NCBI GenBank assembly: GCA_002296185.1
Contig: DBHM01000006.1
Span: 1,091 to 65,090, forward strand
Length of the DNA stretch: 64,000 nucleotides
DNA from: Alphaproteobacteria bacterium UBA828
Lineage (GTDB): Bacteria > Pseudomonadota > Alphaproteobacteria > UBA828
Direction of reading: 5' to 3'
The translations under genes were made by a program, and so were the position numbers. Positions 14,102 through 50,735 of this stretch are shown here, piece by piece. Under the pieces are notes generated by a model, which was not told the DNA's origin, did no database searches, and was given only the letters and a program-made list of their open reading frames with translations. Position 1 is the first letter of the stretch. Each line of letters begins with the position of its first letter.

Positions 14102-15409
14102 TTATAATTTAGTAACAAGATTTCCCAAATCATCAAATTCAATATTCATTTTTTCTGAAATAACACTTCCGTAGTCTCCAAGGTCATCAACTAATGATGG
14201 AGATAGAAGAATTTCATCTAAATGTAGTGTAGATTTGATAATGCAAAGTCGTGCATTTTCTCCATCGAGTCTCCATGAAGAAGCAACTGCTGCTCTGATC
14301 GCCTGAGAGTCATCGGCTAATACTGGAGGAATACCAACTTTCTCAACTGACGTTGCAGTAGTTCCATTAAGATACATTGCATACAAGTCCAATCCATCAA
14401 CAACTCTCTTAGTCGTAAAGTCAGCCGCACCTATTCCTAAACCATTACCATGACTTTCAGGAGTAACTCCAAGAACAACCAGCTTATTAACAAAAGGACG
14501 GTCAGGGTTAGGTTTTCCACGTATTTCAGCTCTACCTGAAATAGCAGGATCCATACCACTACCTGAAATATTCTTACCTAACTCCTGAACTATAAGCACA
14601 TCTATTTGGCCAAATGGTAGTTTTGGTAATAATTCTTTTGCCTTGATAAGAAGCTGACTATCAACACTGTGAAAATCCTCAGGTTCTGCACCCTCGATAA
14701 AAGTAGCCTCGTGATGTGAATTCTCAACAATTCCTATGCCGTAGGCTATATTAGAGTTATCTATTGCGACTCTTGCACACTCTGGCAAAACATCTGAATA
14801 ACCCTTAGGACCCAACCTATGAATAAGTCGAGCACCCTTCGCTTTCCCAAGCCCAATAGCAATCATCTTAACTATCCCACTTTCAATTTCTCTGGGGAAA
14901 GATGTATGTTGCTTAACCCTATTAATGACAAGTACACCATCTGCCTCTGAAGCATTTTGATCAAAATATACAGGTATGTTATGAGAGGTTTTCCCAAGCT
15001 CAACAACATCCATAGTTGCTTTTACAGGACAACCCATTGTGTCTTCAGAAAAACCTAGTTCCTTAAGAAGCTGCATTTGTCCATCAGCAGTTGAACCACC
15101 ATGACTTCCCATACCCGGAACAATGAAGGGCTTTAACCCCCTACCTTTGAGCCAATTAATTGCTGTACGAACAATTTCTGGCTTAGACTTTATACCTCGA
15201 CTGCCGCATGTTACCGCAACACTCCCCCCTTCCGGTAGGGTATTTAGGCGCTTAGATTTTTCAAGAAGACCAATAATATGACCAGGAATATCATTTATTG
15301 GTGCTGAATAGGGATGATTTAGCTTAACTCGATAGACAAACGGCAAAGGTTCAGTTTCTGCAACTGGTAAACGTATTATTGGGAAATTAGGACTATTCTG
15401 CTTTGACAT
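14102..15409 (-). CDS. LarA N-terminal-domain-like (DUF2088-type) protein, function unknown
   Basis: 435 aa. The block VAVTCGSRGIKSKPEIVRTAINWLKGRGLKPFIVPGMGSHGGSTADGQ resembles the family I recall annotated as lactate-racemase-domain / DUF2088 proteins. The assignment is from memory only. It is co-directional with hyuAB, 39 nt downstream. Confidence 0.4.
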   Translation of the reverse strand: MSKQNSPNFPIIRLPVAETEPLPFVYRVKLNHPYSAPINDIPGHIIGLLEKSKRLNTLPEGGSVAVTCGSRGIKSKPEIVRTAINWLKGRGLKPFIVPGMGSHGGSTADGQMQLLKELGFSEDTMGCPVKATMDVVELGKTSHNIPVYFDQNASEADGVLVINRVKQHTSFPREIESGIVKMIAIGLGKAKGARLIHRLGPKGYSDVLPECARVAIDNSNIAYGIGIVENSHHEATFIEGAEPEDFHSVDSQLLIKAKELLPKLPFGQIDVLIVQELGKNISGSGMDPAISGRAEIRGKPNPDRPFVNKLVVLGVTPESHGNGLGIGAADFTTKRVVDGLDLYAMYLNGTTATSVEKVGIPPVLADDSQAIRAAVASSWRLDGENARLCIIKSTLHLDEILLSPSLVDDLGDYGSVISEKMNIEFDDLGNLVTKL

Positions 15410-19514: not shown

Positions 19515-20909
19515 ATGCAAAATAGAAACTCAGCATCCGCAAGAGACGCAAAATATATGATTCATGGTTATTGCGATTTAGCTACTCAACGTAATAAAGG
19601 GCCCTCTGTGATTTCAGGAGGAAAAGGAATATTTGTATATGACGAGAATGGAACTCCCTTTCTTGAGGGTGCAGCTGGAATGTGGTGTACTGCCTTTGGC
19701 TTTGGAGATGAAGAGCTAATTCAAGCAGCAGTAGAACAACTGCATCGCCTTCCATATTATCATACATTAGCTTATAAATCAGTTAATCCTGCCATTGATT
19801 TATCTGAGCGCCTCTCAGAAATAGTACCGATTGATGAGGCAAAGGTCCACTTTGCGCTTTCCGGATCTGAGGCAAATGATTTCTTAATTAAATTCACCCG
19901 CTACTATAACAATGCTTTGGGCCGTGAAAAGAAAAAGAAAATTATTAGCCGTGTCAATGGGTTCCACGGAGCAACTATTGGAGCAGCAAGTCTTACAGGA
20001 ATACCTGTCAGCCATGAGGCATTCGATCTACCCATACCTGGCATAGTTCATGTATCTGAACCAAATTGGTTGCATAATTCTCAACCAGGAGAAAGCAAAA
20101 CTGAATACGCATCAAGACTTGCACATGAGTTAGAGGATATTATCCTGCGTGAAGGCCCAGATACCATTGCAGGGTTTATTGCTGAACCAATTACCGGCGC
20201 TGGTGGAGTAATTATTCCACCAGATACATATTACGAAAAGATACAGAAAGTACTCGACAGTTATGACATCATGTTTTTTGCTGATGAAGTCATCTGCGGT
20301 TTTGGGAGAACTGGCAATATGTGGGGATGCGAAACAATGGGAATTCGCCCCAATACCATGACTCTTGCTAAAGCCTTAACTTCTGCCTACCAACCACTAT
20401 CTGCACTTGTGATTGATAAAGAATTTTACTCTGGAATAGAAATGGGCTGCAACAAGATAGGCTACTTTGGACATGGGACTACTTATGGGGGGCACCCAGT
20501 TGCATGCGCAGTTGCTCTAAAAGTGATTGAGCTATTTGAACAGAGGAATATGTTATCTCATATAGCTCAAGTCTCAAAACATTTTAAAAGCAAAATAATG
20601 GAGTTTAAAGACCATCCCCTAGTAGGAGATGTTAGGTGTAAGGGTCTTCTAGGGGCCATAGAATTAGCCGAAGATAAAAAAAGGGGTAAATTTTTTAGCC
20701 CTGATGGATTGATTGCAAAAAGGGTTAAAGATAGAGCAGAAGAGCGTTATAAATTAATTTTCAGACAAGCTCCATGCGGTGATACATGCGCCTTTTCCCC
20801 CCCATTGATCATTAACGAAGAAGAAATAACTGAAATGTTCAAAAGATTTCGAAAAGCACTTGACGAAGTTTCATCAGAACTTCATCAAGAAGGGGTCATT
20901 GAGTTATAA
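19515..20909 (+). CDS. class III (omega) aminotransferase
   Basis: 464 aa with the FFADEVICGFGRTGNMWG motif, SGSEAND, and a PLP-Lys region (TLAKALTSAY). It is divergent from hyuAB. Confidence 0.85.
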   Translation: MQNRNSASARDAKYMIHGYCDLATQRNKGPSVISGGKGIFVYDENGTPFLEGAAGMWCTAFGFGDEELIQAAVEQLHRLPYYHTLAYKSVNPAIDLSERLSEIVPIDEAKVHFALSGSEANDFLIKFTRYYNNALGREKKKKIISRVNGFHGATIGAASLTGIPVSHEAFDLPIPGIVHVSEPNWLHNSQPGESKTEYASRLAHELEDIILREGPDTIAGFIAEPITGAGGVIIPPDTYYEKIQKVLDSYDIMFFADEVICGFGRTGNMWGCETMGIRPNTMTLAKALTSAYQPLSALVIDKEFYSGIEMGCNKIGYFGHGTTYGGHPVACAVALKVIELFEQRNMLSHIAQVSKHFKSKIMEFKDHPLVGDVRCKGLLGAIELAEDKKRGKFFSPDGLIAKRVKDRAEERYKLIFRQAPCGDTCAFSPPLIINEEEITEMFKRFRKALDEVSSELHQEGVIEL

Positions 20910-20964: not shown

Positions 20965-21630
20965 TTAATCTTCGCCCCAAATTTTAATGCCAGCATGTTT
21001 AAAGGAAGTGCTTTTAGATATATTAAGTCTAATTAAAATAGGAGTCAGCGCTTCTATACAACGCGCACTTTCGGCAAGTCCACAGTTGTAAGCCTTAGCA
21101 CCAATCTTCTCTATTAAAGACATAACAGTATTTTTTGCCTCAAGGTTATTTCCACAGATCAATATATCACAATTAATTGGTTCATTAATATTATTAAGAA
21201 CTTTTGCTGAAACATTATGCAAAGCGCCTACAACATTAATATTTTCGCCAAGTAGGTTCTGGGCAGACTCAGTAGCTGACCCTTCTGGAGGCATATCAAC
21301 TTTTTTAGGATTATTTTCAGATAATGGTACTACAATATCAACTAGGATCTTACCCTCCATTGATTCCCGTATTGAATCTAATGTACTGTGATGAGCACTC
21401 CACGGTACAGATAATATAACAATTTCATGTGCTTCTTGCACAGCTTGTCGATTTTCTGCCCCTATTATCTTACTACATCTATCATTAAGCCTAGCATTAA
21501 GCGCAGCAGCCGCTTCTTTTGCTCTCTCGGCATCTCTTGAACCAATAACTACCTTTACACCAGCGCTTGCCAGGCGAAGTGCTAAGCCACTACCCTGTGG
21601 GCCACTTCCTCCAAGAATTGCTATACTCAT
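20965..21630 (-). CDS. npdG: NADPH-dependent F420 reductase
   Basis: 221 aa with N-terminus [33 protein letters not shown], typical of NpdG/Fno. Its ATG overlaps the cofE stop (ATGA at 21627-21630). Confidence 0.8.
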
Positions 21631-22397
21631 CTAAAAAGATCCTCCTTTTGTGCTCTTATAAGATCCCTAGCACTGTTATCACCAGGAATCCATTCTAAAC
21701 CACGACAAAGAATAATAGGGACCTTACCACCCTTAGTCATTAATAATCCTGATGAAGCTGCAATCTCATCTGCAAAAGCAGGTTGAGTAACACGTAATTT
21801 ATATCCGAAAGCATCTTCAGCACCCTTTAATGTGGGAGCTGCTGGAACACCTGCAAGGCCTATAGCAACATTTAGCTGGCCAATTCTCCACGCTCTCCCA
21901 AAAGTATCTGATATAATTACACCAATTGGGTTTACCCCGCTAAAATTTTCTAATTTAGAACGTAATTCTCTTGCTGATTGATCTGGATTCTGGGGTAAGA
22001 GAAGGCAGGATTCATCTTGCTCGATATTTGATTCATCTATACATGAATTTGCGCTTATAAAACCCAATTTGTGCTCGGTAATAATAACCCCTTCATCTTG
22101 ATCAGGTCGATCTATCGCGCGTATCACCTGTTTGCACTCACTTAAAATAACTTCGACCTTCCGCGGATCCTTCCTTACTTTCCTTGCAAGCTCTATGGCT
22201 CTAGAAGAAGGTTTAATATCTTTATAAGATACTATCCTCCCCTCTGACTTCGAAACTATTTTATGTGCGACAACAAAGATATCTCCTGGACAGCATTGAA
22301 TCTTTCCATTTTTAAGGGTAGCTAAAAGAATTTCACCAATATTATCATGCAAGTTAATGTTAGGAATTCCCTTTATAGCATGAAGCTCAACCTTCAT
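21627..22397 (-). CDS. cofE: coenzyme F420-0:L-glutamate ligase (stand-alone CofE, no FbiB C-terminal domain)
   Basis: It carries the [19 protein letters not shown] motif. I placed the start at ATG 22397 ([10 protein letters not shown]), which forms an ATGA overlap with the cofC stop. At 256 aa it is only the ligase domain. Confidence 0.85.
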
Positions 22398-23044
22398 GGC
22401 GATGTCAGACCCCATCTTTCGAAATAATCAATTAAGGGCCCATTAGGCATTATACGCATGTATTCTTTTACATCCTTCTTAGTATCTAAATCTAATCCAA
22501 TGCCCGGAAGACGAAGGACGGTTACGTCTGCACCTACCTTAAATGCTTCTTCCTGATGCAAAAAACTGCTATTCTTTCCATAACGGTGAGAAATAACACC
22601 TGGGGGTGACTCTAACATAGCGTTGGTACCTCCATCGCTGAAGGCTTTTGCAATAACAACTTGAGGTGGCGTAATTTTTGAATCTATTAATTCACTAAAT
22701 TCGGCCCTATCTAAAATACCTATGTCAGAGTGAACAATCAATTGCGAACTAAAACCCATAGAACAACTAATTTTTGTTGCAGAATCAACAGCTTTATTCA
22801 GCCCATGACCTGGATCTTTGAGTGGGAAGGCTCCAAATTCTTTGGCCTCTAGAGCTATATCGCTTGAGTCTGTTACAACCGTTAAATGCGTGCATGGCCA
22901 TTCACTACGAAAAAATGCAAGAGACCTTCGGTATAATAATAGTGATAGCTGTGACCTTTGTGAGTCACTCAGAAATGGGGCTAACCTATTCTTAGCCTTC
23001 TCGGGGCTGCGTACAGGCAAAACAATATTTAATTTCTTTTTCAT
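22394..23044 (-). CDS. cofC: 2-phospho-L-lactate (or related) guanylyltransferase CofC/FbiD
   Basis: 216 aa with N-terminus NIVLPVRSPEKAKNRLAPFLS, matching the CofC pattern iPvk..aKtRL. It sits between cofD and cofE. Confidence 0.75.
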   Translation of the reverse strand: MKKKLNIVLPVRSPEKAKNRLAPFLSDSQRSQLSLLLYRRSLAFFRSEWPCTHLTVVTDSSDIALEAKEFGAFPLKDPGHGLNKAVDSATKISCSMGFSSQLIVHSDIGILDRAEFSELIDSKITPPQVVIAKAFSDGGTNAMLESPPGVISHRYGKNSSFLHQEEAFKVGADVTVLRLPGIGLDLDTKKDVKEYMRIMPNGPLIDYFERWGLTSP

Positions 23045-23049
23045 AAATC

Positions 23050-23994
23050 TTATGAGGGACCTTTCCCATGGGCTCTGTCGAGAATAGCTCTTGCAAGATC
23101 CTTTTTATCCTTCCTATCATTCATGATTGTTTTCTCAACCCACACACAACAATTATAACTTTCAATAGTAGATATTAAACCCTCATCAATATAATCAATA
23201 ACTATTGCGTCGATTATATCATTATATAATTCAGTCACTCCAACTGCATCAGGTCTATGACCAAGAGAAGTCATCATTTGTGCTGCTGGACCTTTAATTG
23301 CTCTACCTCCGACTAAAGGAGACACAGCAACGCAGAGAGCGCTACTCTCAACAATTGCTTGTCTTAAACCGTTTATGGATAAAATAGGACCAATACTTAC
23401 AATAGGATTAGAAGGGGCTATGACAATTAAGCTTGCATTTTCTATAGCTATCATTGCCTCAGGTGTCAGTTTAGCCTCTTCTTGACCCAATATAGAGATA
23501 CTATTAACTACAGGTTTACATTTATCTCGAACAAAATATTCCTGGAAAGCCATAGACCCGTTAGGGGTATTTATACGTGTGTGTAAAGGGTCATCAGTCG
23601 GTAAAATTAAATCAATATTAACTCCTAAAGAGTTAGCTATATCACGTGCAATATCTGAGGGCCTATCCCCAGCATTGCGCCGGAAAGTTCTATAAATATG
23701 TAGACCAAGGTCTTGGTCACCTAACTGCATCCACGTATCATGGCCAAGCTTATCTAGGACAAAAAGAGCACGAAAAGTTTCCTCTTTGACACCCCAGCCT
23801 TTGTCTGTATCTATTAACTCAGCAAGGGTATATGTGATTGTATCAATATCTGGTGAAACCCATAGACCATGAAATTCCCAATCATCAGCAACATTTCCTA
23901 TTACTTTTAAGTCCGAAGGAGAGCAGACGTCAGCGAAGCCCTGGACCATCTTTGCTCCGCCAACGCCTCCAGCAAGCACAACAACTTTAGACAT
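23050..23994 (-). CDS. cofD: 2-phospho-L-lactate transferase CofD/FbiA
   Basis: 314 aa with N-terminus VVVLAGGVGGAKMVQGF and a typical CofD length. It lies 5 nt upstream of cofC. Confidence 0.85.
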   Translation of the reverse strand: MSKVVVLAGGVGGAKMVQGFADVCSPSDLKVIGNVADDWEFHGLWVSPDIDTITYTLAELIDTDKGWGVKEETFRALFVLDKLGHDTWMQLGDQDLGLHIYRTFRRNAGDRPSDIARDIANSLGVNIDLILPTDDPLHTRINTPNGSMAFQEYFVRDKCKPVVNSISILGQEEAKLTPEAMIAIENASLIVIAPSNPIVSIGPILSINGLRQAIVESSALCVAVSPLVGGRAIKGPAAQMMTSLGHRPDAVGVTELYNDIIDAIVIDYIDEGLISTIESYNCCVWVEKTIMNDRKDKKDLARAILDRAHGKGPS

Positions 23995-24012
23995 TTTTAG
24001 CTCTCTATACCG

Positions 24013-25296
24013 TCAGACTAACCAGGACCGACTTGCAAGAGCTTCAGTCTCGCTAGTTCCGGATCTTGCAACTAAAGGCTTGAACTCGCCAGCGTCACGA
24101 TCATTATAAGAAGCTATTTCCTTGTATAATGTGGTTCTTTGTACGGGAATCCTGCCTGCTCCACGAATAATCCCCGTCATTTCACGTGGCATTACTTCCT
24201 GCCCCCAACGTGCGCCAGCTGAACGAGATATTGACTCGTTCATCAACGTCCCGCCAAAATCGTTTGCTCCACACTTTAGTATTTTTTGCGCAAGACTTGG
24301 CCCCAATTTAACCCATGAAACCTGAATATTATCCACCCAACCCCTTAACATTAGTCTAGCGATAGCATGCATCTTAATATTCTCATCTTCTGTTGGACCC
24401 GGCCTAACCCCAGAAATATTCTTGTATAAAGGTGATTCATCATGAATAAATCCTAGTGGAACAAATTCTGTAAATCCGCCAGTATCTTTTTGTATATCTC
24501 TAATTAATGCAATATGTGATACCCAATGTTCAGGACCGTCTATATGGCCATACATTATTGTAGCCGTTGAATGGAGACCTACACCGTGCGCAGACTTAAT
24601 AATCTCCACCCATTTATCTGCACTTAATTTATTCTGAGTTAGCACTTTACGAACATTTGTATCGAGTATTTCTGCTGCTGTTCCTGGAATCGATCCAAGA
24701 CCATTTTCCTTAAGGTCACTTAAGAACTCATCGTATTCCATCCGAGATTTCTTTGCTCCATACCATATTTCAAATGGAGAAAATGCATGAATATGAATGT
24801 CTGGAACCTCTTTTTTAATTACCTGCAATATATCTTTATAATAGCTCCCAGGTATTTTCGGATTTAACCCACCTTGAATACATACCTCTGTTGCACCACG
24901 AGACCATGCCTCAGCTGCTCGACGCGCAACTTCATCCAAGGGAAGAAGCTCTGCTCCCTCCTCGTCAGACCGCTTTGCAAAATTGCAAAATTTGCATCCC
25001 ATATAACAAATATTTGTGAAATTTATATTTCGATTTACGACAAATGTCACTTTCTGACCTACCGCTTCGGATCTAAATTTATCAGCAACTGCAATAAGGG
25101 CGACATAATCAGCACCAGAACAATTAAATAGCTTTACAGCATCTTGCCTAGAAAGCTCGCCTCCATTAAGCAAACTTTCTAAGATGCTTCTTATTGGGTT
25201 TCTAGCACGCCGCAATAATATAGAAAGATCCATATTATCTATGCCCCCATTCTCGAAAAAAGATGCTAGATCATAGTTCTGTATGGAGCTTTTCAT
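24013..25296 (-). CDS. cofH: FO synthase subunit 2 (radical SAM)
   Basis: 427 aa with the radical-SAM CxxxCxxC motif (CYMGCKFCNF). There is an ATGA overlap with the cofG stop at 25293-25296. Confidence 0.85.
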   Translation of the reverse strand: MKSSIQNYDLASFFENGGIDNMDLSILLRRARNPIRSILESLLNGGELSRQDAVKLFNCSGADYVALIAVADKFRSEAVGQKVTFVVNRNINFTNICYMGCKFCNFAKRSDEEGAELLPLDEVARRAAEAWSRGATEVCIQGGLNPKIPGSYYKDILQVIKKEVPDIHIHAFSPFEIWYGAKKSRMEYDEFLSDLKENGLGSIPGTAAEILDTNVRKVLTQNKLSADKWVEIIKSAHGVGLHSTATIMYGHIDGPEHWVSHIALIRDIQKDTGGFTEFVPLGFIHDESPLYKNISGVRPGPTEDENIKMHAIARLMLRGWVDNIQVSWVKLGPSLAQKILKCGANDFGGTLMNESISRSAGARWGQEVMPREMTGIIRGAGRIPVQRTTLYKEIASYNDRDAGEFKPLVARSGTSETEALASRSWLV

Positions 25297-26429
25297 CTTA
25301 CCCTACCTTCAATTTCCGAACTTTGCATCAATACCTCAATTTTCCCAGAAAGGCCTGGATCTAAAAATTCATGAGATTTTTCTACATAACGTGGATATAC
25401 AGTCAATCTCTCAGATAATTTATAACCTTTTTCTTCTAAATCGCTAGCTAGAGTATCTATCATAGGCCAGGCACATTCAGGATTAATATAATCCATTGTT
25501 AGAGGTGAAATTCCGCCCCAGTCATTGATACCACTATCAATATAATCCAAATATTTTTCAGAGAGGTTTGGGGGCGCCTGCAGACTTATCTCTAAAGGAA
25601 GCATAAGACGCGCAACAGCGATAGTACGAAGCATATCCTCATGATCTGGCTCCTTAAAATTTTGCATAAGTGTACCAGGTTTAGCTCTAAAGTTCTGGAC
25701 AATAACTTCTTGAATATGGCCGTATCGTTTATGAAGACTAGCTATAGCTGACAAGGTCTCTAATCTTTCCAGCCAAGTCTCACCTATACCAATTAAAATA
25801 CCGGTAGTAAAAGGTACACTTAGTTTTCCAGCTCTTTCTAGGGTTCTTAATCTCTGCACGGGAACCTTATCAGGACAAGAGAAGTGAGCATTACCAGGAC
25901 GATTTAGTCGACGCGAAATATTCTCGAGCATCATTCCCATACTCGCACTTACAGGCTTTAAAAGACGTAGATCGGACTCACTCAGAGTTCCAGCATTCAC
26001 ATGGGGTAGTAAACTACTTTCTTTTAGCACCCTGGCGCAAATAGCATGCAAATATTCAATCATGGTATTAAAACCAAGTCCTGCTAGTTCCTTTCTTACT
26101 TGCTCATAACGTAATTCTGGCTTTTCCCCTAAGCTGAACAATACTTCTTTAGCTTTAACCTCCATACCACCAGATACTACTTTCATAACCTGTTCAGGTG
26201 TCATTATTCGCGCACCATCTTCACCAGGACGCTTAACGAAAGTGCAATATCCACACTCATCTCGACAATAATTTGTAAGAGGAACAAATACTTTCCTAGA
26301 ATAGGTTATTGTCTTACCCCAATATTGGTCCCTAAAAGACGCAGCCTCAGCACATATTTGTTTTAACCCGCCCCCAGTCAGCGAATCAAAATTGCTGAAT
26401 TCTTCAACATTACGTCCCATGAAGCTCAT
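25293..26429 (-). CDS. cofG: FO synthase subunit 1 (radical SAM)
   Basis: 378 aa with the CxxxCxxC motif (CRDECGYCTF). It is the first gene of the cof string. Confidence 0.85.
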   Translation of the reverse strand: MSFMGRNVEEFSNFDSLTGGGLKQICAEAASFRDQYWGKTITYSRKVFVPLTNYCRDECGYCTFVKRPGEDGARIMTPEQVMKVVSGGMEVKAKEVLFSLGEKPELRYEQVRKELAGLGFNTMIEYLHAICARVLKESSLLPHVNAGTLSESDLRLLKPVSASMGMMLENISRRLNRPGNAHFSCPDKVPVQRLRTLERAGKLSVPFTTGILIGIGETWLERLETLSAIASLHKRYGHIQEVIVQNFRAKPGTLMQNFKEPDHEDMLRTIAVARLMLPLEISLQAPPNLSEKYLDYIDSGINDWGGISPLTMDYINPECAWPMIDTLASDLEEKGYKLSERLTVYPRYVEKSHEFLDPGLSGKIEVLMQSSEIEGRVR

Positions 26430-26733
26430 TTTTTAAAATTCCATACCATTTCGATATTATTTACACTTAAAAATGGAAAAGTCGTATAGTGTTAAGACCA
26501 CCAGACCTGTCTGATATGGTCAAGTCTTTTTAGGGCTATATCATATTGATATTTAGATAAAATTATATGAAATGACAATACACAACACCTATGATCAAAT
26601 TATGTTTAAAATAGGATATAAATAACCTTAAAATACTACATAAATCTTCAAAAGTAATTCTGAAACAAAATTGAGGATTTTGGTCATATTTTAGGCCAAA
26701 TAGTCCGGAATGAATAAAAGAAGGAATATATAG

Positions 26734-27702
26734 ATGGAATTTGGATTTAACATCCCAAACGGTGGAGAGCTCGCTAATAATGAATCTATTGTATCCATTT
26801 CGCGAAAGGGAGAAGACTGTGGTTTTAACTTGCTAGCTATCCCTGATCATATAATTATCCCAAAAGCTATAGGCGATAACTATCCTTATTCTGCAGATGG
26901 GAAATTAAACTTTTCTACTCTTGCAGGTGGAATGTGCCTAGAACCGCTAGCAATGATGGCCGCAGTAGCAGCGCAAACTACAACTGCCCATATCCTGACC
27001 TCTGTAATGGTAGTTCCATATCGTGAACCAATGCTTACGGCTAAACTCATTTCTACAATTGACCACCTTTCTGGAGGAAGAACTATTCTAGGGTGTGGAG
27101 CAGGCTGGATGCCCGAAGAGTTTGATGCATTAGAAACTCCACCTTTTAAAGAAAGAGGTAAAGTTACTGATGAATATATCGATATTTTCCGTGAACTTTG
27201 GACTAAGGATGAACCTAAATTTGAAGGAGACTATCGTAAATTCAAAGATATTTATTTTTCTCCTAAACCAGTCCAAAACCCCCACCCCCCTATCTGGATT
27301 GGCGGAGAAAGCAAAGCTGCCATGCGACGTGCCGCAAAACGAGGAGATGCCTGGTTTCCAATAGGGTGCAATCCCAAAAGTCCTCTTGACACCATGAGTA
27401 AATATAAAATAGCAAGAGCTACTATACGTTCTATATGCGACATGGAAGCGCGAGACCCTGATAGCCTAGAACTTGCATATTGGTCTGTATGGACTTCTTG
27501 TGCAGGAGAACCTGTTACCCTTGAAGACGGGGAAAGAATGATGCTAACAGGCAGCATCGATACATTAGTTGATGATATTGAGGAATTAAAAGGGCTAGGT
27601 GTTAGCAAACTACTGTTTAATTTTCTTAGTGATACTGAGAACGAAACACTAGATAAAATTGAAGCGTTTAGTAAGGATGTATTATCAAAAGTTTCCGCTT
27701 AA
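26734..27702 (+). CDS. LLM-class (luciferase-like) flavin/F420-dependent oxidoreductase
   Basis: 322 aa with TIM-barrel LLM features (LAIPDH...GGRTILGCGAGWMPEEF; PPIWIGGES). It is divergent from cofG. Confidence 0.8.
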   Translation: MEFGFNIPNGGELANNESIVSISRKGEDCGFNLLAIPDHIIIPKAIGDNYPYSADGKLNFSTLAGGMCLEPLAMMAAVAAQTTTAHILTSVMVVPYREPMLTAKLISTIDHLSGGRTILGCGAGWMPEEFDALETPPFKERGKVTDEYIDIFRELWTKDEPKFEGDYRKFKDIYFSPKPVQNPHPPIWIGGESKAAMRRAAKRGDAWFPIGCNPKSPLDTMSKYKIARATIRSICDMEARDPDSLELAYWSVWTSCAGEPVTLEDGERMMLTGSIDTLVDDIEELKGLGVSKLLFNFLSDTENETLDKIEAFSKDVLSKVSA

Positions 27703-29395: not shown

Positions 29396-30436
29396 ATGCA
29401 TTTGGGACTTTTTCTTGGCTATTCTGGTGCTACTTACTCTATTGATATAAAGATGATTCAAGAAGCAGAAAGTCTGGGCTATTCATCTGTTTGGACCTCT
29501 GAAGCCTACGGATCCGACTCAGTAACTCCAGCTGCCTGGATCCTTGCTCAAACAGAAAATATTAAAGTTGGAACTGCGATTATACAGATTCCTGCACGCA
29601 CACCAGCTTGTGCTGCTATGACAGCAATGACGTTACAATCACTTTCAAAAAACAGATTTATTCTTGGTGTTGGACCTTCAGGACCACAAGTTATTGAGGG
29701 CTGGCATGGAGAATCATATGACCGTCCACTAACAAGAATGCGGGAATACATAGAGATTATAAGGGATATTTTTAAACGCGAGTCACCATTGGAGTATGAT
29801 GGATACCATTATCAGTTACCATACCGCGGTGATAAAGCTACAGGTCTAGGAAAACCACTAGAAAGTATCCTACACCCAGTTGGTGAACTAGAAATTTTTA
29901 CTGCAGCAGTTGCTCCTAAAGGGATACAACTCGCAGCAGAAATCGCCGATGGGATGTTTCCAATATTTATGGCCCCTGAACGTTTTGATATATTTCAGAA
30001 GGACTTAGAAATTGGGTTTGCAAAAAGCAAAAAGGTAAATTCTATAAATACGTTCAAAGTCTCTCCTATTGTACCATTAGTAGTTGGTGAAGATATAGCA
30101 TTATGTAGGAGACCAGTAAAAAGTATGCTTGCATTATATATCGGAGGAATGGGAGCCCCCGGAAAAAACTTTTATAACGATTACGCCAAACGTTTAGGCC
30201 ACGAAGAAGCCGCAATAAAAATTCAAAAGCTTTACTTAACCGGAAATAAGTCTGAGGCTGAAGAAAGCGTACCAGATGAATTAGTTGACTCCATAGCTTT
30301 GGCAGGGCCAAAAGAACATATTAAAGAAAGACTTCAAGTATGGAAAAATGCGGCTCAAGAAGGTAAGATAGACTCCTTGTTGATATCTGGTGGTAACTTG
30401 TCATCACTCAGATTTTTAGCAGAGCTGTCACTATGA
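29396..30436 (+). CDS. LLM-class F420-dependent oxidoreductase
   Basis: 346 aa. The block LGYSSVWTSEAYGSDSVTPAAWILAQTENIKVGTAIIQIPARTP...GVGPSGPQVIEGWHG is typical of actinobacterial-type F420 LLM families as I recall them. Confidence 0.8.
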   Translation: MHLGLFLGYSGATYSIDIKMIQEAESLGYSSVWTSEAYGSDSVTPAAWILAQTENIKVGTAIIQIPARTPACAAMTAMTLQSLSKNRFILGVGPSGPQVIEGWHGESYDRPLTRMREYIEIIRDIFKRESPLEYDGYHYQLPYRGDKATGLGKPLESILHPVGELEIFTAAVAPKGIQLAAEIADGMFPIFMAPERFDIFQKDLEIGFAKSKKVNSINTFKVSPIVPLVVGEDIALCRRPVKSMLALYIGGMGAPGKNFYNDYAKRLGHEEAAIKIQKLYLTGNKSEAEESVPDELVDSIALAGPKEHIKERLQVWKNAAQEGKIDSLLISGGNLSSLRFLAELSL

Positions 30437-30525
30437 ACAATTTTGCAATAAAGTATTTAGTAAAAATTCGATTGCTTATCATATAGACAATATATTTATA
30501 AACTTTGAATTACTGGGGATTTTCA

Positions 30526-31002
30526 ATGAGCTCTAAATCAACTGCCACTAAAGAAAACAAACTTAGCGAACAAGAGGTTAATGAACGACTATCTGCTCGT
30601 GGCTATGCACACTTTGCTAGCTATAGGCCAGATGGGATGATTCACTTAACTCCTATATGGTATAATTGGAACGGTAGTCAATTTAGATTGACTTTAGGTG
30701 CTGGGAGAATTCATTTAAAAAACCTTGCCTTAGATCCTCGATGCTCAATATTAGTTGATGAGGACCCTCGAGTAACAGAAGGCCTAGCAGCAGGAGCTTG
30801 GGCAATAATGTGCCGCGGTAATGCAGAGCTTTCTCAAGATCCAGATCTAATCAAAGAAGTTACACATGCTGTTCTATCAAAAACCCTAGGGCCGAAAGAT
30901 GCAGATGAATATACTGTGCCAATTATGGCCGAAGGCAGAACTATAGTTACTATAACACCAAAAGATTGGTTAACCTGGGATTACAACAAAGGAGAAGATT
31001 AA
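30526..31002 (+). CDS. PPOX-class (pyridoxamine-5'-phosphate-oxidase-fold) probable F420-dependent enzyme
   Basis: The block RPDGMIHLTPIWYNWNGSQFRLTLGAGRIHLKNLALDPRCSILVDED matches the split-barrel PPOX pattern. I placed the start at ATG 30526 with a GGGGA Shine-Dalgarno; the track uses TTG at 30505. Confidence 0.7.
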   Translation: MSSKSTATKENKLSEQEVNERLSARGYAHFASYRPDGMIHLTPIWYNWNGSQFRLTLGAGRIHLKNLALDPRCSILVDEDPRVTEGLAAGAWAIMCRGNAELSQDPDLIKEVTHAVLSKTLGPKDADEYTVPIMAEGRTIVTITPKDWLTWDYNKGED

Positions 31003-31098: not shown

Positions 31099-32115
31099 TT
31101 AATTCGAAACCTTTGCTGCACGCGGAGGCGCCGAAAGTTTTGGGGTTGTTGCTTTATCGGGACTGTCATGGTCTCTAGTTAACATCTCCACGTCATCACG
31201 GGCCCCTTCTGGATCATTGACCCATTTATCGTAGAACTCGAAGGGATTTTTTGCATGTCCACCAGGTTCAGATGTAAAACCACGGTGAACTAGATTATAT
31301 AAATGATTTTCAGCCGTCCAATTTCTCCTAGCATCTCTAATTGTAGTTAAAGATAGAGTTGCATAGGTCGCCTCATCAGGACCTGTACCGCACTCAGCCA
31401 GCACACTACCGTCAAAGTCAACTATATTTGAATGACCAAAGTATGAATAAACCAGGTCCCGGCCAGCCATATTTGCGACTGCAACATAAGTTAAGTTTTC
31501 CCAGGCTCTTACTTGAGCAATTTGCCTCTGTTGTTCCTTTGAAGGATACATGTAACCCTGAATTCTAACTACAAGCTCAGCACCTTTCATAACAGTATCA
31601 CGAACAATTTCTGGCATATTACAATCATAGCATATCGTACCACCAACCATGAGTCCTTTCGGCCCTTCTGCCACAGCTGTTTCATGACCGGCTGTCCAGG
31701 GCTCTTGAGGAGTCCAGGGGAAAATCTTTCTATACACTAAACATGTTTCACCCTGATCATTAATCATCACTAAAGTATTATAAGGATTCAAACCATCCGG
31801 ATGTTCTTCGCCAGTTAACGAGAAAATCCCATACACTCCATTTTTCTTACATGCTTCAGAGAAAATCTGCATCTCATCTCCAGTAAGAGTTGTAGTAAGG
31901 TCAGACCATTTTGTTGGATGAAACCCCTGAGTAGTATATTCTGGGAAAACTATCAGATCTAATCCTGGATAGCCCCTTTTCATCCCATCTATAAAACCTG
32001 ATATTCTTTTGCAATTGTCAATTACCTGGCTCTTAGTCTCAACTACTGGAACTTGGTAATTAACTACAGCAACACCAACTGCATCATCACTAGAAGATAT
32101 CGATCCCTGTGGCAT
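31099..32115 (-). CDS. nitrilase-superfamily aliphatic amidase / formamidase (AmiE/AmiF-like)
   Basis: 338 aa. It is collinear with AmiF/AmiE as I recall them: VAVVNYQVPVV; GLDLIVFPEYTTQG, which holds the catalytic Glu; KIFPWTP; and ICYDCNMPE, which holds the catalytic Cys. Confidence 0.8.
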   Translation of the reverse strand: MPQGSISSSDDAVGVAVVNYQVPVVETKSQVIDNCKRISGFIDGMKRGYPGLDLIVFPEYTTQGFHPTKWSDLTTTLTGDEMQIFSEACKKNGVYGIFSLTGEEHPDGLNPYNTLVMINDQGETCLVYRKIFPWTPQEPWTAGHETAVAEGPKGLMVGGTICYDCNMPEIVRDTVMKGAELVVRIQGYMYPSKEQQRQIAQVRAWENLTYVAVANMAGRDLVYSYFGHSNIVDFDGSVLAECGTGPDEATYATLSLTTIRDARRNWTAENHLYNLVHRGFTSEPGGHAKNPFEFYDKWVNDPEGARDDVEMLTRDHDSPDKATTPKLSAPPRAAKVSN

Positions 32116-45387: not shown

Positions 45388-46107
45388 TTAGGCAAAAAGC
45401 CAATTAAAAGTAGCTGATGAAGCCTCACTTAGAACCCAAAATCCAATACCAACAGATATAATTCCAAGCGTAAAAATCATATAATTGTAACCCCAAGAAA
45501 GTCGTTTCATTAGACTCCTAAGCGGTACAGCAATTACAACAGTCAGTAATGCCATGCCTGTCATGGCACCCAACCCAAAAAGACCAATGTAAACCAGACC
45601 AGTCCAAATACTTTCAAAATTATCTATAGCAAAAATTAGAAGAGCAGCTGACCCGGCCATCCCATGCATTAACCCAACTAAAAAAGCTCTGAGAGTAGGT
45701 CGACGTAAATGCTGATGATTATGGTCTATATTTTTATGCGGAGTTTGAATACCGTGAGAATGTGCATGAAAATGAACAGTTCCATCTGAATGTCGATGGG
45801 AATGAAAATGAATACGTGCTTTTTTCAATCTTAATATTACGTCTATTCCTAGCCAAACCAGCATTAACCCCACTAAAAATTGGAGTAAATATGATATATT
45901 AGTGGGTAGAAAAGTATCGAAGGACATAACAATTATTCCAACGGCACAAAGAGTAAGAGCGTGACCACCACCCCAGGCAAAGCCCATCTTTAAAGCTTCT
46001 TTAGGCTTTTGATTGCCTGATGCAAGCGTTGCAACAGCTGCCAGATGATCAGCATCTAAAGCATGACGTAAACCAAGAAGAAAACCAAAAAATAATGCAC
46101 TACCCAT
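45388..46107 (-). CDS. NicO/RcnA-type nickel/cobalt transporter
   Basis: 239 aa with the signature GLRHALDADHLAAV (the HxxxxDH box of nickel/cobalt transporters). It also has a His-rich loop, HFHSHRHSDGTVHFHAHSHGIQTPHKNIDHNHQH. Confidence 0.75.
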   Translation of the reverse strand: MGSALFFGFLLGLRHALDADHLAAVATLASGNQKPKEALKMGFAWGGGHALTLCAVGIIVMSFDTFLPTNISYLLQFLVGLMLVWLGIDVILRLKKARIHFHSHRHSDGTVHFHAHSHGIQTPHKNIDHNHQHLRRPTLRAFLVGLMHGMAGSAALLIFAIDNFESIWTGLVYIGLFGLGAMTGMALLTVVIAVPLRSLMKRLSWGYNYMIFTLGIISVGIGFWVLSEASSATFNWLFA

Positions 46108-46204: not shown

Positions 46205-47251
46205 TTACCAATTACCAGAGAATTTTTTAAACTCAGTGGGAATTTCTTTGATTTCTTGAATTAAGTCTGAGGGCAAAGTAGATGGCTTATCTATTGAAGT
46301 GCTCCCGTATATTGAATCAGCAACACCAATAAATCTAGTCTTTATAGCTGCTACAATTTCATCATATCTACCTACAGCAGAAAATAAATAGACAAGGTCA
46401 TCAGATACCTCAGCAGACATTTTATCCCAGAGTCCTTCTTTAGTCATTTTGTTTAATTTCCTTCCCAAGTCCCCATATCCATGGTGTTCCAGAACAGGCC
46501 AGTATGATGGAGTGGAGGCATAGAAAGCAATTCTATATCTCACCCATTCAATTGAAGAAGCAACCTCCTGGTCTGTTGCCCCAGTTGCTAAAAATCCCCC
46601 CCCAGTTACCTCAAAGTTCTCACGGGATAACCCTCTTTCATCAAGTTCTGTTTCTATAATTTTTAAAGCAACCTGCTTAGCATAAGAGTGAGTGCAAAAA
46701 GGGTGTAATCTAACTCCATCAGAGCAAGATCCAGCTAATCTTAATGAGTGCTTGCCAACAGCGGCGATAGTTATAGGAATAGGCGGATGACCATCTGAAG
46801 GTGGAACAAAATTTGGTGGCATTAAAGTAAAGGTATAGTGATCACCTTCAAAAAAGAGTTTTTCGCCTTTTTCCCAAGAAGACCAAATTGCCCGTAAGGC
46901 TTGAATATATTCGCGCAATCTAGGCACAGGAGCAGACCAGGGAACAGAAAATCTTTTTTCATTGTGAGGCTTTATTTGCGGCCCAAGACCAAGCACAAAT
47001 CTTCCCTTACTTGCTAACTGCAAATCCCAGCATGTATTTGCTACAACCATAGGGCTTCTAGGAAAAGCTATCGCAACGGCTGTACCTATTGAAATTGAAG
47101 TACTTGATACAGCAGCTAAACCAAGGGCAAGAAACGGATCATGGCGATTTTCCATTGTAACAACCATATCATAGCCATTTTCCTCAGCTGCCTTTACAGC
47201 CCTACCTACATCGCTAAGCATATTTTGGGGAATAGTTTGGAGGATTCTCAT
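46205..47251 (-). CDS. LLM-class (probable F420-dependent) oxidoreductase
   Basis: 348 aa with LLM features (ENGYDMVVTMENRHDPF...GRFVLGLGPQIKPHNEKRF). Its ATG overlaps the stop of the LarE-like gene (ATGA at 47248-47251). Confidence 0.75.
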   Translation of the reverse strand: MRILQTIPQNMLSDVGRAVKAAEENGYDMVVTMENRHDPFLALGLAAVSSTSISIGTAVAIAFPRSPMVVANTCWDLQLASKGRFVLGLGPQIKPHNEKRFSVPWSAPVPRLREYIQALRAIWSSWEKGEKLFFEGDHYTFTLMPPNFVPPSDGHPPIPITIAAVGKHSLRLAGSCSDGVRLHPFCTHSYAKQVALKIIETELDERGLSRENFEVTGGGFLATGATDQEVASSIEWVRYRIAFYASTPSYWPVLEHHGYGDLGRKLNKMTKEGLWDKMSAEVSDDLVYLFSAVGRYDEIVAAIKTRFIGVADSIYGSTSIDKPSTLPSDLIQEIKEIPTEFKKFSGNW

Positions 47252-48120
47252 ATTTTTTTCTGATCATTAATGGTCGATTGACGATCGGCCTCTAGCAAAA
47301 AAGCACTGCCCATACAATATGGCTCGATATAAATTACAGGCTCACCAAAAAATGGTTTAGCTATTTGGAATGCATGATCTGTTATATATGCCTTTAAATT
47401 AGTATCAATTTTCTTCAGGCTAGGTTCATCAATTTCAATAACGATCCCCTTGCTGCGCACACGGCACCTAACAATTGATAAACAAACCTTCTCAGCTAAC
47501 ATTGTTTCAATAGAATCAATCATCGTTAAATAAGATGACTCAATTCTCAGTCCTGTCTCCATGCGACTTGATAAGCACGGGGAAGCTGGTAACTCAGATA
47601 ATCCATGAAGACCGATCTCTTTTGATAATTTTCTAATCATTGCCTTACTTATGTTGGACTCAACAAATGGATGCCTTACAGAGTTGTTCTTAGCCGCATC
47701 TAACCCTGGACGATAATCAAGTAGATCGTTTGTATTAGCACCAGAGCAGATCTGAAATTCTGGGAATTGCCTAGCTATACTTCCATAAAGGTTTTTCTTA
47801 CAATAGAAACATCTATTCACGGGGTTTTTGAGATAATCTTCGTCAGAAAACTCACCAGCGTTAATACAGATTAAGTCCCATCTATATTTTTCAGCATATT
47901 CCTTAACAAGGGATGTTGATCTTTTAGGAACAGCTGGAGAAATAGCATGAACCATTTTTGCTTTTGATCCGACTACAAAGTGAGCTATGTGCGCCAGAGT
48001 CATACTATCTATACCCCCTGAAACAGCTACAACTAATTGAGACATCTGCCTCAAACAGATTTCTAATGTGTTATATTTTTGTTGGAGATCCGTTGCTTCT
48101 TTCATAGAGAGTCTACTCAT
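47248..48120 (-). CDS. PP-loop ATP pyrophosphatase, LarE-like (TIGR00268-type)
   Basis: 290 aa with the PP-loop VAVSGGIDSMTLA. ASPCLSSRMETG aligns with the remembered LarE Cys176 region (SCSVSSRFPYG). It has an additional CxxC (NRCFYCKKNLY) where Lactobacillus LarE has none. Confidence 0.65.
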   Translation of the reverse strand: MSRLSMKEATDLQQKYNTLEICLRQMSQLVVAVSGGIDSMTLAHIAHFVVGSKAKMVHAISPAVPKRSTSLVKEYAEKYRWDLICINAGEFSDEDYLKNPVNRCFYCKKNLYGSIARQFPEFQICSGANTNDLLDYRPGLDAAKNNSVRHPFVESNISKAMIRKLSKEIGLHGLSELPASPCLSSRMETGLRIESSYLTMIDSIETMLAEKVCLSIVRCRVRSKGIVIEIDEPSLKKIDTNLKAYITDHAFQIAKPFFGEPVIYIEPYCMGSAFLLEADRQSTINDQKKI

Positions 48121-48127
48121 AATGTTT

Positions 48128-48931
48128 TTAGGAATAATCAGATACTAAAAAATTTTCATTTTCATCATAAAGGATATTAATACGTGCAACATATTTTGGA
48201 ATTTCACCAAGCACAGGAGCGCCTGCGTGAAGAACGGTATCATGTGTATGTCCATGTCTAAATACTAAAGCACTACCTTTTTTTGGCGGAACTATTTTTA
48301 CAACTCTTCCTTTATCATAAATAACTGTCTCCCCCCCCTCTACACCATCAGAAATACCATTTAAATATAAAACAAGACTTAGTTTTGACCTTACACAAGG
48401 TATCTCAATCATACTTTCACCATCATCACTCAAATCAAATCCAGGCCAATCTCCATCTATATGTGGATTAAAAACATCACCTTTGTCGTAGCGATACATA
48501 TTTATCCTCGCGCTTAAGCATGATGCTAAAGGCCTCCCATCAATCTCCTGAGGCAATACTGGAGATAAACGATTAAAAAATACTTTCATGATCTTATTCT
48601 CAGCTAACCAATGTACTGATTTATTTTTCCTTAAACCTGGCGCAGTAACTATTCCAGGCGCCTCTGGTCTATATCCTAGAGATTCTGTTATCTCTATTAT
48701 TTTATTTGCCTCATCATGCGTAAGGAGGTCCTCAATTAAAAAAACCAATTTACCATCTACACCTAAATCAATGCGTTTGGCTGATTGTAATGATTTATTA
48801 AGGGGATCAAGGAACTGACCACACTGTACTGCATAGATAGGTGTGCCCGGCATTACACCCCCATCCGGAGTAGATCCATCCAGCCAAGCAACTGGTTTCG
48901 ACTTTATTTGGTCTTTAGTAATAGTAACCAT
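48128..48931 (-). CDS. 2OG-Fe(II) oxygenase, prolyl-4-hydroxylase-like
   Basis: 267 aa with a HxD...H facial-triad pattern (FNPHIDGD ... TVLHAGAPV) and a P4H-like beta-sheet core. It lies 7 nt upstream of the LarE-like gene. Confidence 0.7.
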   Translation of the reverse strand: MVTITKDQIKSKPVAWLDGSTPDGGVMPGTPIYAVQCGQFLDPLNKSLQSAKRIDLGVDGKLVFLIEDLLTHDEANKIIEITESLGYRPEAPGIVTAPGLRKNKSVHWLAENKIMKVFFNRLSPVLPQEIDGRPLASCLSARINMYRYDKGDVFNPHIDGDWPGFDLSDDGESMIEIPCVRSKLSLVLYLNGISDGVEGGETVIYDKGRVVKIVPPKKGSALVFRHGHTHDTVLHAGAPVLGEIPKYVARINILYDENENFLVSDYS

Positions 48932-50261: not shown

Positions 50262-50735
50262 TCAATTGCTATCAGACTGCATCCTTTCAGTGAAATCCCA
50301 TGAGAAAATTTTTACCGGGTCTATAGATATAGCAACTTCAGCACTTGAGCGGGAGAGCAACCATTTAGCTAGAGATGTCTCACGGCTTGCTAAATATTTA
50401 TCGATTACGGAATGAAGTATTCTTTCACCCTCATTATCATGAACCTTAATAATTCCCCTACCTCGGACACCCTGATACGGCGGTTTATCAGAAGAGACCT
50501 CAAAGGCACAGCGGTCGGTCTCCAACAGGGCCTTGACTATATGTGCCGACTTTGGAGTAGCCAACCATAGCTTCTCACCCTCCAGTATAAACCAAAGTGA
50601 CACAATAACAGGCCAACCGCTTGGGAGGACAACAGAAAGTCTTATTGGGATAGAAATAGAATCCAAATAATTGATAATTTCGGAGCGACTCCATGGTCCA
50701 GTTGTTTGGAAATTCGATCTATCAGATGGTGACAT
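50262..50735 (-). CDS. PPOX-fold (pyridoxamine-5'-phosphate-oxidase-like) protein
   Basis: 157 aa with a split-barrel pattern (LSVVLPSGWPVIVSLWFILEGEKLWLATPKSAHIVKALLETDRCAFEV). The cofactor (FMN or F420) cannot be determined from sequence. Confidence 0.55.
   Translation of the reverse strand: MSPSDRSNFQTTGPWSRSEIINYLDSISIPIRLSVVLPSGWPVIVSLWFILEGEKLWLATPKSAHIVKALLETDRCAFEVSSDKPPYQGVRGRGIIKVHDNEGERILHSVIDKYLASRETSLAKWLLSRSSAEVAISIDPVKIFSWDFTERMQSDSN

Follow-up and report, generated by a model that had tools for sequence, protein, structure and literature searches.

The window analysed here (the whole stretch of 64,000 nucleotides from Alphaproteobacteria bacterium UBA828, contig DBHM01000006.1, positions 1,091 to 65,090) carries six genes on its minus strand, cofG-cofH-cofD-cofC-cofE-npdG at 20965-26429, that are predicted to form one intact operon for the synthesis of coenzyme F420. 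The explanation that we favour, and to which we assign a probability of about 0.6, is that this operon has been inherited vertically within its alphaproteobacterial family, that it builds the side chain of the cofactor from 2-phospho-L-lactate (2-PL) or phosphoenolpyruvate (PEP), that it has no known dehydro-F420-0 reductase at its disposal, and that classical lactyl-F420 is its likeliest product. As a hydride carrier of low potential, F420 matters to biocatalysis and to an understanding of how recalcitrant compounds are broken down in the ocean, and the locus bears on the general question of how, or whether, the lactyl side chain is completed in bacteria that lack FbiE and have a ligase-only CofE. 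Since the operon is compact, with six genes and no auxiliary ones, it offers a clean test case for this step. The window is one contig (C30) of a metagenome-assembled genome (MAG) of 1.61 Mb in 30 contigs, which is 77% complete and ~1% contaminated, with 36-41% G+C.

Six translationally coupled genes for F420 synthesis

The genes and the two non-coding features that adjoin them are as follows (aa, amino acids; bit scores are for NCBIfam equivalog models, with the curated cut-off in brackets).

25293-26429, minus strand: cofG, FO synthase radical-SAM subunit, 378 aa, at the head of the operon; TIGR03550, 456 bits (213); motif CRDECGYC
24013-25296, minus strand: cofH, FO synthase radical-SAM subunit, 427 aa; TIGR03551, 511 bits (374); motif CYMGCKFC
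23050-23994, minus strand: cofD, phospholactyl/enolpyruvyl transferase, 314 aa; TIGR01819, 286 bits (257)
22394-23044, minus strand: cofC, guanylyltransferase, 216 aa, with a predicted 2-PL/PEP-type pocket; TIGR03552, 122 bits (105); aligned to PDB 7P97, 6BWG and 2I5E
21627-22397, minus strand: cofE, F420-0:glutamate ligase, ligase domain only, 256 aa (262 aa from an alternative ATG at 22415); TIGR01916, 236 bits (181)
20965-21630, minus strand: npdG/fno, NADPH-dependent F420 reductase, 221 aa; TIGR01915, 218.9 bits (149.8), positions 1-217 of 221
20859-20889, minus strand: terminator-like hairpin downstream of npdG, by pattern scan only, with a 12-pair stem and a T-rich tail
26430-26733, no strand assigned: divergent intergenic region of 304 nt between cofG and a luciferase-like monooxygenase (LLM) gene, with no Rfam or promoter signal

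The open reading frame (ORF) call gave the same six minus-strand boundaries except for cofE, called at 21627-22415. All six products exceeded their cut-offs, with profile coverage that was essentially end to end for CofG, CofH, CofC, CofD and CofE. Pfam was concordant: Radical_SAM matched both CofG and CofH, and F420_oxidored matched NpdG, in which the N-terminal Rossmann fold was also found. A previous reading of this DNA from its letters and translations (henceforth the sequence-only reading) had proposed a complete six-gene cof operon and had named failure of the cofC, cofD and cofE calls in profile searches as grounds for rejecting it; all three passed, and the proposal holds for the entire set. 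The details that it had given were likewise recovered, namely CxxxCxxC radical-SAM motifs in both halves of the FO synthase, ATGA start/stop overlaps at cofG/cofH (25296-25293), cofC/cofE (22397-22394) and cofE/npdG (21630-21627), and spacers of 18 nt between cofH and cofD (24012-23995) and 5 nt between cofD and cofC (23049-23045). No terminator-like site was detected by pattern scan on the minus (coding) strand inside the operon, and the hairpin beyond npdG sits within the 3' end of a convergent aminotransferase gene. In the 304-nt region upstream of cofG, a riboswitch or other RNA element was sought and dismissed, there being no Rfam match at E<=1, and promoter-like matches were no commoner there than in shuffled sequences.

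In the mycobacterial FbiB, the CofE ligase is fused to a reductase domain. The longest cofE frame encodes 262 aa, but in the closest relatives the protein starts five residues ahead of the conserved A-x-x-G-I-P, and the ATG at 22397, which gives the 256-aa product and the ATGA overlap, is favoured for that reason. The full-length FbiB model PRK13294 aligned to CofE only at profile positions 10-243 of 449, that is, over its N-terminal half, and CofE therefore lacks a C-terminal domain; no fused flavin mononucleotide (FMN)-binding nitroreductase-fold domain was found, and the cofE stop codon already overlaps, as ATGA, the start of npdG. The 256-aa, ligase-only CofE of the sequence-only reading is thus upheld. 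Overall, the six genes constitute, as far as sequence can tell, one translationally coupled and intact operon for F420 synthesis and NADPH:F420 reduction, and by every sequence test available it belongs to the F420 pathway.

F420 synthesis is conserved in the family and encoded by two gene sets

The loci closest to the window come from uncultured marine Alphaproteobacteria (one labelled Rhodospirillaceae and one mislabelled Gammaproteobacteria) and match the operon and its flanks gene for gene. Within the GTDB family cofD was present in 40 of 44 genomes, including all 23 of high quality, and it was absent from all five genomes of the sister family, the only one that the order has; we therefore regard F420 as a trait of the family rather than a sporadic acquisition. 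The sequence-only reading, which had suggested that the taxonomic distribution be checked, had implied a sporadic proteobacterial occurrence, and the family-wide conservation of F420 synthesis overturns this.

Comparison of gene order across 26 family loci distinguished two arrangements. In type A, found in genera g1 (the genus of this MAG), g5, g6 and g9, a divergent LLM gene of the TIGR03619 family is followed by cofG-cofH-cofD-cofC-cofE-npdG. In type B, found in genera g2, g3, g4, g8 and g10, the order is PPOX, LLM, TIGR03668 PPOX, cofE and cofD, and npdG, together with cofC and a fused fbiC, lies a few kb off where the fetched stretch reached that far (g3 and g8). The closed genomes of g4 and g10, of 3.3-6.2 Mb and probably from isolates, have the type-B genes. 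A second cofD match was seen in no genome of the family. In the CofD tree, type A and one Devosiaceae MAG formed a clade (support 99) apart from type B, which grouped with Anaerolineae, and when types A and B, as groups set beforehand from gene order and the CofD tree, were forced together, the approximately unbiased (AU) test rejected the arrangement for both CofE (p = 1.9e-4) and CofH (p = 7.6e-87). NpdG behaved differently: the proteins of both types formed one clade at 63-65% identity and are orthologous family-wide. In the RpoB tree, rooted on the sister family, g9 branched first, followed by g1 with g5, and the type-B genera made up one derived clade (support 89).

These trees and gene orders place two xenologous F420 gene sets in the family and make the operon of the window a vertically inherited one. 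The most parsimonious reading is that the family's ancestor already used F420, probably with the type-A set as the older one, and that the biosynthetic genes were replaced as a block in the ancestor of the type-B genera, which kept npdG and one or more F420-type enzymes; the inferred direction of the swap is not secure. Such a swap would mean that the module for synthesis of a cofactor can be replaced as a unit while the enzymes that depend on it are left undisturbed. Chloroflexota were considered as direct donor of the type-A genes and rejected, as type-A CofD is sister to, and not nested in, the group of Chloroflexota and type B.

Two further observations concern the genomes compared. The sole rpoB match of one family genome (G055, contig C108:864-4889, locus L121) was 64% identical to RpoB of the genome that holds the window, versus 73-85% in the others compared, and was also without the split match pattern of other family members; this contig is probably a contaminant in that MAG. 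Separately, the aliphatic amidase of the window (31099-32115) was 95-97% identical at the protein level to those of genus g5 (L003 and L007), whereas the neighbouring cof proteins were just 49-73% identical to their g5 counterparts, which points to very uneven divergence over one syntenic block.

Enzymes predicted to use the cofactor

The window holds the following candidate F420-dependent enzymes.

26734-27702, plus strand: TIGR03619-family F420-dependent LLM oxidoreductase, divergent from cofG; 231 bits (cut-off 167)
29396-30436, plus strand: TIGR03559-family F420-dependent LLM oxidoreductase; 387 bits (cut-off 335)
30505-31002, plus strand: PPOX-class (FDOR-B-like) protein, probable F420H2-dependent reductase; Pfam PNPOx_N, 45.6 bits
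46205-47251, minus strand: TIGR03617-family F420-dependent LLM oxidoreductase; 367 bits (cut-off 278); start/stop overlap with larE

The sequence-only reading had counted three LLM and two PPOX genes in the window. The three LLM genes are confirmed and the PPOX gene at 30505-31002 is clear (though its TIGR03618 score of 67 bits lies under the cut-off of 79), while the second PPOX candidate, at 50262-50735, emerged from iterative searches only and matched nothing in Pfam or NCBIfam. The MAG as a whole encodes 19 ORFs of the LLM superfamily, at least six of which exceed F420-specific NCBIfam cut-offs (four TIGR03619, one TIGR03559 and one TIGR03617), three of them in the window. Another distant PPOX-like ORF and an LLM ORF lie side by side elsewhere in the MAG, at C8:29361-30700. 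Given the presence of cofC, cofD, cofE and fno and of many F420-type LLM genes, F420 and not FO alone is the expected product, in agreement with the F420-dependent metabolism that had been proposed for this organism. The locus would add a whole alphaproteobacterial family to the committed users of F420, including marine members with small genomes (~19 LLM genes in 1.6 Mb).

No known side-chain reductase in the lineage

Neither an FbiB C-terminal domain nor a stand-alone FbiE-type reductase was found in the operon, in the MAG or in the 44 genomes of the family, closed ones included, the relatives having been searched because the MAG is incomplete. TIGR03553 reached at best 22.7 bits in the MAG itself, over an N-terminus only, and no more than 43.5 bits throughout the family (44 genomes, 10 genera), and it gave zero matches at E<=1e-4 in five closed, single-contig family genomes. 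As a positive control, the same model picked out stand-alone genes at 103-158 bits in five genomes of Anaerolineae, where the FbiE genes of loci L044 and L065 adjoin cofD, between cofE and cofD, and Dehalococcoidia proteins at 46-63 bits over the full length; the search therefore detects FbiE where it is present. The absence of the reductase is, by these genome searches, a property of the lineage and not an assembly gap.

The only PF00881 proteins of the MAG are two nitroreductase-fold proteins, an NfnB-like one on contig C21 and a YdjA-like one on contig C28. The former was rejected as FbiE on its scores against PDB 3GR3 (226 bits) and Mycobacterium smegmatis NfnB (103 bits) versus FbiB 4XOM (24.6 bits), with TIGR03553 matching its first ~60 residues only, and the latter is YdjA/PRK10828-like. 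The lack of an FbiB-type reductase that the sequence-only reading had noted for the operon consequently extends to the MAG and the family, and the stand-alone nitroreductase-like enzyme that it had suggested seeking elsewhere in the genome did not emerge.

A PPOX protein of the TIGR03668 (Rv0121) family was also considered as the missing reductase. In type-B loci where the gap was read (L104:8052-8510; also, for example, L105, L110, L113 and L117) it lies between the LLM gene and cofE, and it occurs in 34 of the 44 family genomes and in none of 14 control genomes, being located elsewhere in the genome in g9. This tight linkage to cofE suggests a role in F420 maturation, or another F420-specific one, and the protein co-occurs with FbiB in mycobacteria (Rv0121c). 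However, the marine genera g1, g5 and g6, this MAG among them, are without it, and it cannot therefore explain the operon of the window.

How unusual is the gap? According to Grinter et al. 2020 (PMC7253369), the FbiB C-terminal domain is missing from CofE in most F420 producers outside mycobacteria, and a 2021 review (PMC8498797) lists Alphaproteobacteria with a ligase-only CofE in which F420 has been detected, namely Oligotropha carboxidovorans and Paracoccus denitrificans. Searching the literature up to 2026, we found no paper identifying the missing reductase step in CofE-only bacteria. Outside Actinobacteria a ligase-only CofE is the usual state (PMC7253369), and the absent reductase is a recognised problem of a whole class of organisms and not a peculiarity of this locus. 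The gap to which the sequence-only reading had drawn attention is real but less special than implied, and Paracoccus, Oligotropha and other Gram-negatives share it.

CofC pocket residues and the side-chain precursor

Use of 3-phosphoglycerate (3-PG) by the CofC of Mycetohabitans rhizoxinica depends on Ser/Thr at position 162, aided by His145, Met91 and Cys95 (Hasan et al. 2022, mutagenesis and the 7P97 structure, PMC8764529). We aligned CofC of the window to 7P97 with phmmer (chain numbering offset +27, checked at K20, K26, R28, H145, T147, N148, S162 and S165). At the four sites that matter for 3-PG it has Gly156 (Ser162), Gly138 (His145), Leu82 (Met91) and Val86 (Cys95), and the same pattern was seen in every type-A member of a MAFFT alignment of 54 CofC sequences, with Gly at the diagnostic Ser162 site in eight of eight. 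The metal-binding Asp triad (Asp107, Asp185 and Asp187) and the carboxylate ligands Ser159 and Thr140 are kept, corresponding to D116, D188, D190, S166 and T148 of Mycobacterium tuberculosis (Mtb) FbiD. At residue 12, the position of the first conserved N-terminal Lys (Mtb FbiD K17), this MAG and both g5 genomes have Arg, and all other aligned sequences have Lys save one Tepidiformia row (Asn); of the pair, the second Lys (7P97 K26) persists as Lys18. Among solved relatives 7P97 was the best match (50.4 bits, 29.9% identity), followed by Mtb FbiD (27.5%) and Methanosarcina mazei CofC (23.5%).

CofC of the window accordingly carries pocket residues of the 2-PL/PEP type and not the 3-PG pattern, as judged by alignment, and with Gly rather than Ser/Thr at the diagnostic site 3PG-F420 is an unlikely product. 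Between 2-PL and PEP there is less to go on. In vitro CofC assays fail to separate the two, and the cognate CofD acts as a second substrate filter (both PMC8764529); the available parts of PMC7253369 and PMC8764529 describe no CofD residues that separate the lactyl (LPPG) from the enolpyruvyl (EPPG) intermediate. With assays that do not discriminate, and a CofD filter for which no sequence determinants are described, sequence cannot decide between 2-PL and PEP. Of the three-way precursor question posed by the sequence-only reading, the 2-PL/PEP part thus stands, and the 3-PG part is largely answered by the CofC residues.

The likely product and its alternatives

By family membership, CofG and CofH would make the deazaflavin FO, CofC would activate a three-carbon phospho-acid with GTP, CofD would transfer it to FO, CofE would add the gamma-glutamyl tail and NpdG/Fno would reduce the finished cofactor with NADPH; the reduced F420 would then feed the many LLM and PPOX-class enzymes of the window and the rest of the genome. 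That the operon makes an F420-type cofactor is, on these predictions, close to certain. From the CofC pocket residues the side chain would come from 2-PL or PEP and not from 3-PG, and lactyl-F420 would arise directly from 2-PL, or else from PEP by way of a non-homologous reductase. Classical lactyl-F420, as reported for other CofE-only Alphaproteobacteria, is on that analogy the probable product.

Several points weigh against this reading, in addition to the CofD filter and its lack of described determinants given above. The 77% completeness of the MAG is a caveat on absences from its own genome. PEP is always available in cells, and if PEP is used with no reductase to follow, dehydro-F420 is the chemically expected default product. 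The diagnostic-residue rule for 3-PG rests on few enzymes, and to our knowledge no study has demonstrated that an enzyme without the diagnostic Ser is unable to use 3-PG. The CofC tree places the 3-PG enzyme 7P97 as sister to the window clade, an unsupported position (42/0). In addition, PEP is generally accepted by CofC enzymes and three archaeal CofCs with Ser/Thr merely tolerated 3-PG (PMC8764529), and no source of 2-PL is known in bacteria (PMC6450877; PMC7253369).

We considered four explanations that differ in how, and whether, the lactyl group arises. It is possible that the route is of archaeal type, with 2-PL made by an unknown enzyme and used directly by CofC and CofD, so that a reductase is unneeded. 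The CofC pocket residues are compatible with such a route, and the split cofG/cofH and ligase-only cofE give the operon an archaeal-style layout. We know of no 2-PL-forming enzyme in any organism, however, and the conserved neighbourhood of the operon suggests none. In vitro, 2-PL was the favoured substrate of the CofCs from the CofE-only P. denitrificans and O. carboxidovorans, a preference that may be an artefact of the Methanocaldococcus jannaschii CofD with which it was seen (PMC8764529).

Scarcely behind it stands a PEP route without reduction, in which the enolpyruvyl group stays and the working cofactor is dehydro-F420-n (DF420); unreduced dehydro-F420 as main product is doubtful, yet a serious alternative. 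It is in line with the absence of any FbiB C-terminal or FbiE homologue from the MAG and the family, and the marine genera g1, g5 and g6 are in addition without TIGR03668, the F420-linked PPOX that the rest of the family has kept. Against it, we know of no natural organism that has DF420 only. The redox properties of dehydro-F420 and F420 are stated to be identical (PMC7253369), and 2-PL is not a known bacterial metabolite (PMC6450877); on the other hand, DF420 is reportedly less stable than the saturated forms (PMC8764529), and other CofE-only Alphaproteobacteria were reported with F420 and not DF420 (PMC8498797). In a more specific version, none of the side-chain reductases known or suspected so far exists in the streamlined genera g1, g5 and g6, whether through loss or because they were never there (TIGR03668, FbiE and the FbiB C-terminal domain are all missing, and these genera would therefore use the unreduced form), and their LLM and PPOX enzymes run on PEP-derived dehydro-F420. 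We consider this improbable; if true, these genera would be the first organisms known to have DF420 as a physiological cofactor and not as an intermediate.

Rather unlikely, too, is a PEP route completed by an unrecognised, non-homologous dehydro-F420-0 reductase, for which the LLM at 26734-27702, the PPOX protein at 30505-31002 and the NfnB-like protein of contig C21 are the candidates. The LLM gene keeps its place next to cofG in all the type-A genomes examined (three genera), and type-B relatives and Dehalococcoidia likewise have TIGR03619-type LLM genes adjoining cof genes. In a tree, however, LLMs adjacent to cof genes fell into three separate clades, one each for type A, type B and Dehalococcoidia, and the LLM at 26734-27702, in its own clade, was closer to two paralogs within the MAG than to the cof-adjacent LLMs of type B, which suits substrate-diversified cofactor users. 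It therefore fits the part of a cofactor user better than that of a biosynthetic enzyme, and the idea of one conserved cof-linked LLM as the missing enzyme was downgraded on these grounds. Moreover, there is no adjacent LLM gene in the operons of Luminiphilus/Halieaceae, which have no full-length match to the FbiB C-terminal domain, or in the Devosiaceae copy of the operon type (L010). The PPOX protein is orthologous across both family types, at 71-80% identity, and adjoins cofD in three type-B genomes; among F420 enzymes, reduction of C=C bonds is typical of the PPOX-class FDORs. On contig C21, the nitroreductase is clearly orthologous to NfnB/3GR3, and no gene of the conserved operon neighbourhood stands out as a reductase.

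That the operon is a Mycetohabitans-like producer of 3PG-F420 is very improbable: 7P97 is the best solved match and lies next to the window clade in the CofC tree, but that placement is the unsupported one, and the Gly/Gly/Leu/Val set occupies the four 3-PG sites in all type-A sequences.

Comparison with known F420 gene clusters

The nearest parallels in gene content are the CofE-only Gram-negative clusters of P. denitrificans, O. carboxidovorans and the marine Luminiphilus/Halieaceae and SAR86, which have the same set of FO synthase, CofC, CofD, ligase-only CofE and Fno, lack the FbiB C-terminal domain and raise the same precursor question (PMC8498797; PMC8764529). They differ in layout, with a fused fbiC and the order npdG-cofE-cofD-cofC-fbiC (loci L072-L081), whereas in the operon of the window cofG and cofH are separate and head the order cofG-cofH-cofD-cofC-cofE-npdG. 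For the same reason it does not belong to the classical proteobacterial cluster (fused fbiC; cofE-cofD and cofC-fbiC units), and its CofD, CofE and CofH cluster apart from the classical type that also occurs in this family. Loci of Chloroflexota share with it split cofG and cofH followed by cofD-cofC with an LLM gene alongside, and they also provided the next-best CofD matches (42-45% identity). The order is cofG-cofH-cofD-cofC-LLM in Dehalococcoidia/SAR202 and npdG-cofE-PPOX-fbiE-cofD-cofC-LLM in Anaerolineae. In contrast to the lineage of the window, Anaerolineae have a clear stand-alone FbiE (103-158 bits), between cofE and cofD in the operons examined, and Dehalococcoidia have full-length nitroreductases of 46-63 bits elsewhere in the genome; a stand-alone FbiE is also described for Thermomicrobium roseum (PMC8498797).

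With the mycobacterial fbiC/fbiD/fbiA/fbiB pathway the operon shares homologous steps of FO synthesis, guanylylation, transfer and glutamylation, and CofC shares the Asp triad and the Ser/Thr ligands; it differs in having no fused FbiC and no FbiB C-terminal FMN reductase domain and in gathering all genes, fno included, in one operon. The 3PG-F420 pathway of Mycetohabitans (Paraburkholderia) rhizoxinica resembles it in having a ligase-only CofE and no reductase, and is set apart by the Ser162, His145, Met91 and Cys95 of its CofC (7P97), a set that CofC of the window lacks. By gene content and residues, the operon thus falls outside the FbiB/FbiE route, the 3PG route and the classical fused-fbiC proteobacterial layout.

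Other observations

In several Dehalococcoidia (L012:7232-7926, and the same position in L011, L016, L020 and L026) two small minus-strand ORFs of 131 and 100 aa lie between cofH and cofD; on visual inspection they resemble a toxin with a PIN domain and the matching antitoxin, inserted in the F420 operon. In the window itself, larE (47248-48120), which overlaps start/stop with the F420-type LLM gene at 46205-47251, is flanked by genes for a NicO-like nickel transporter (45388-46107) and a 2-oxoglutarate-Fe(II) oxygenase (48128-48931), and a gene for a nickel-pincer-cofactor isomerase (LarA family, group 22; 14102-15409) ends a hyuAB operon. The larE, LLM and LarA genes could together form a nickel-pincer enzyme system coupled to F420 chemistry.

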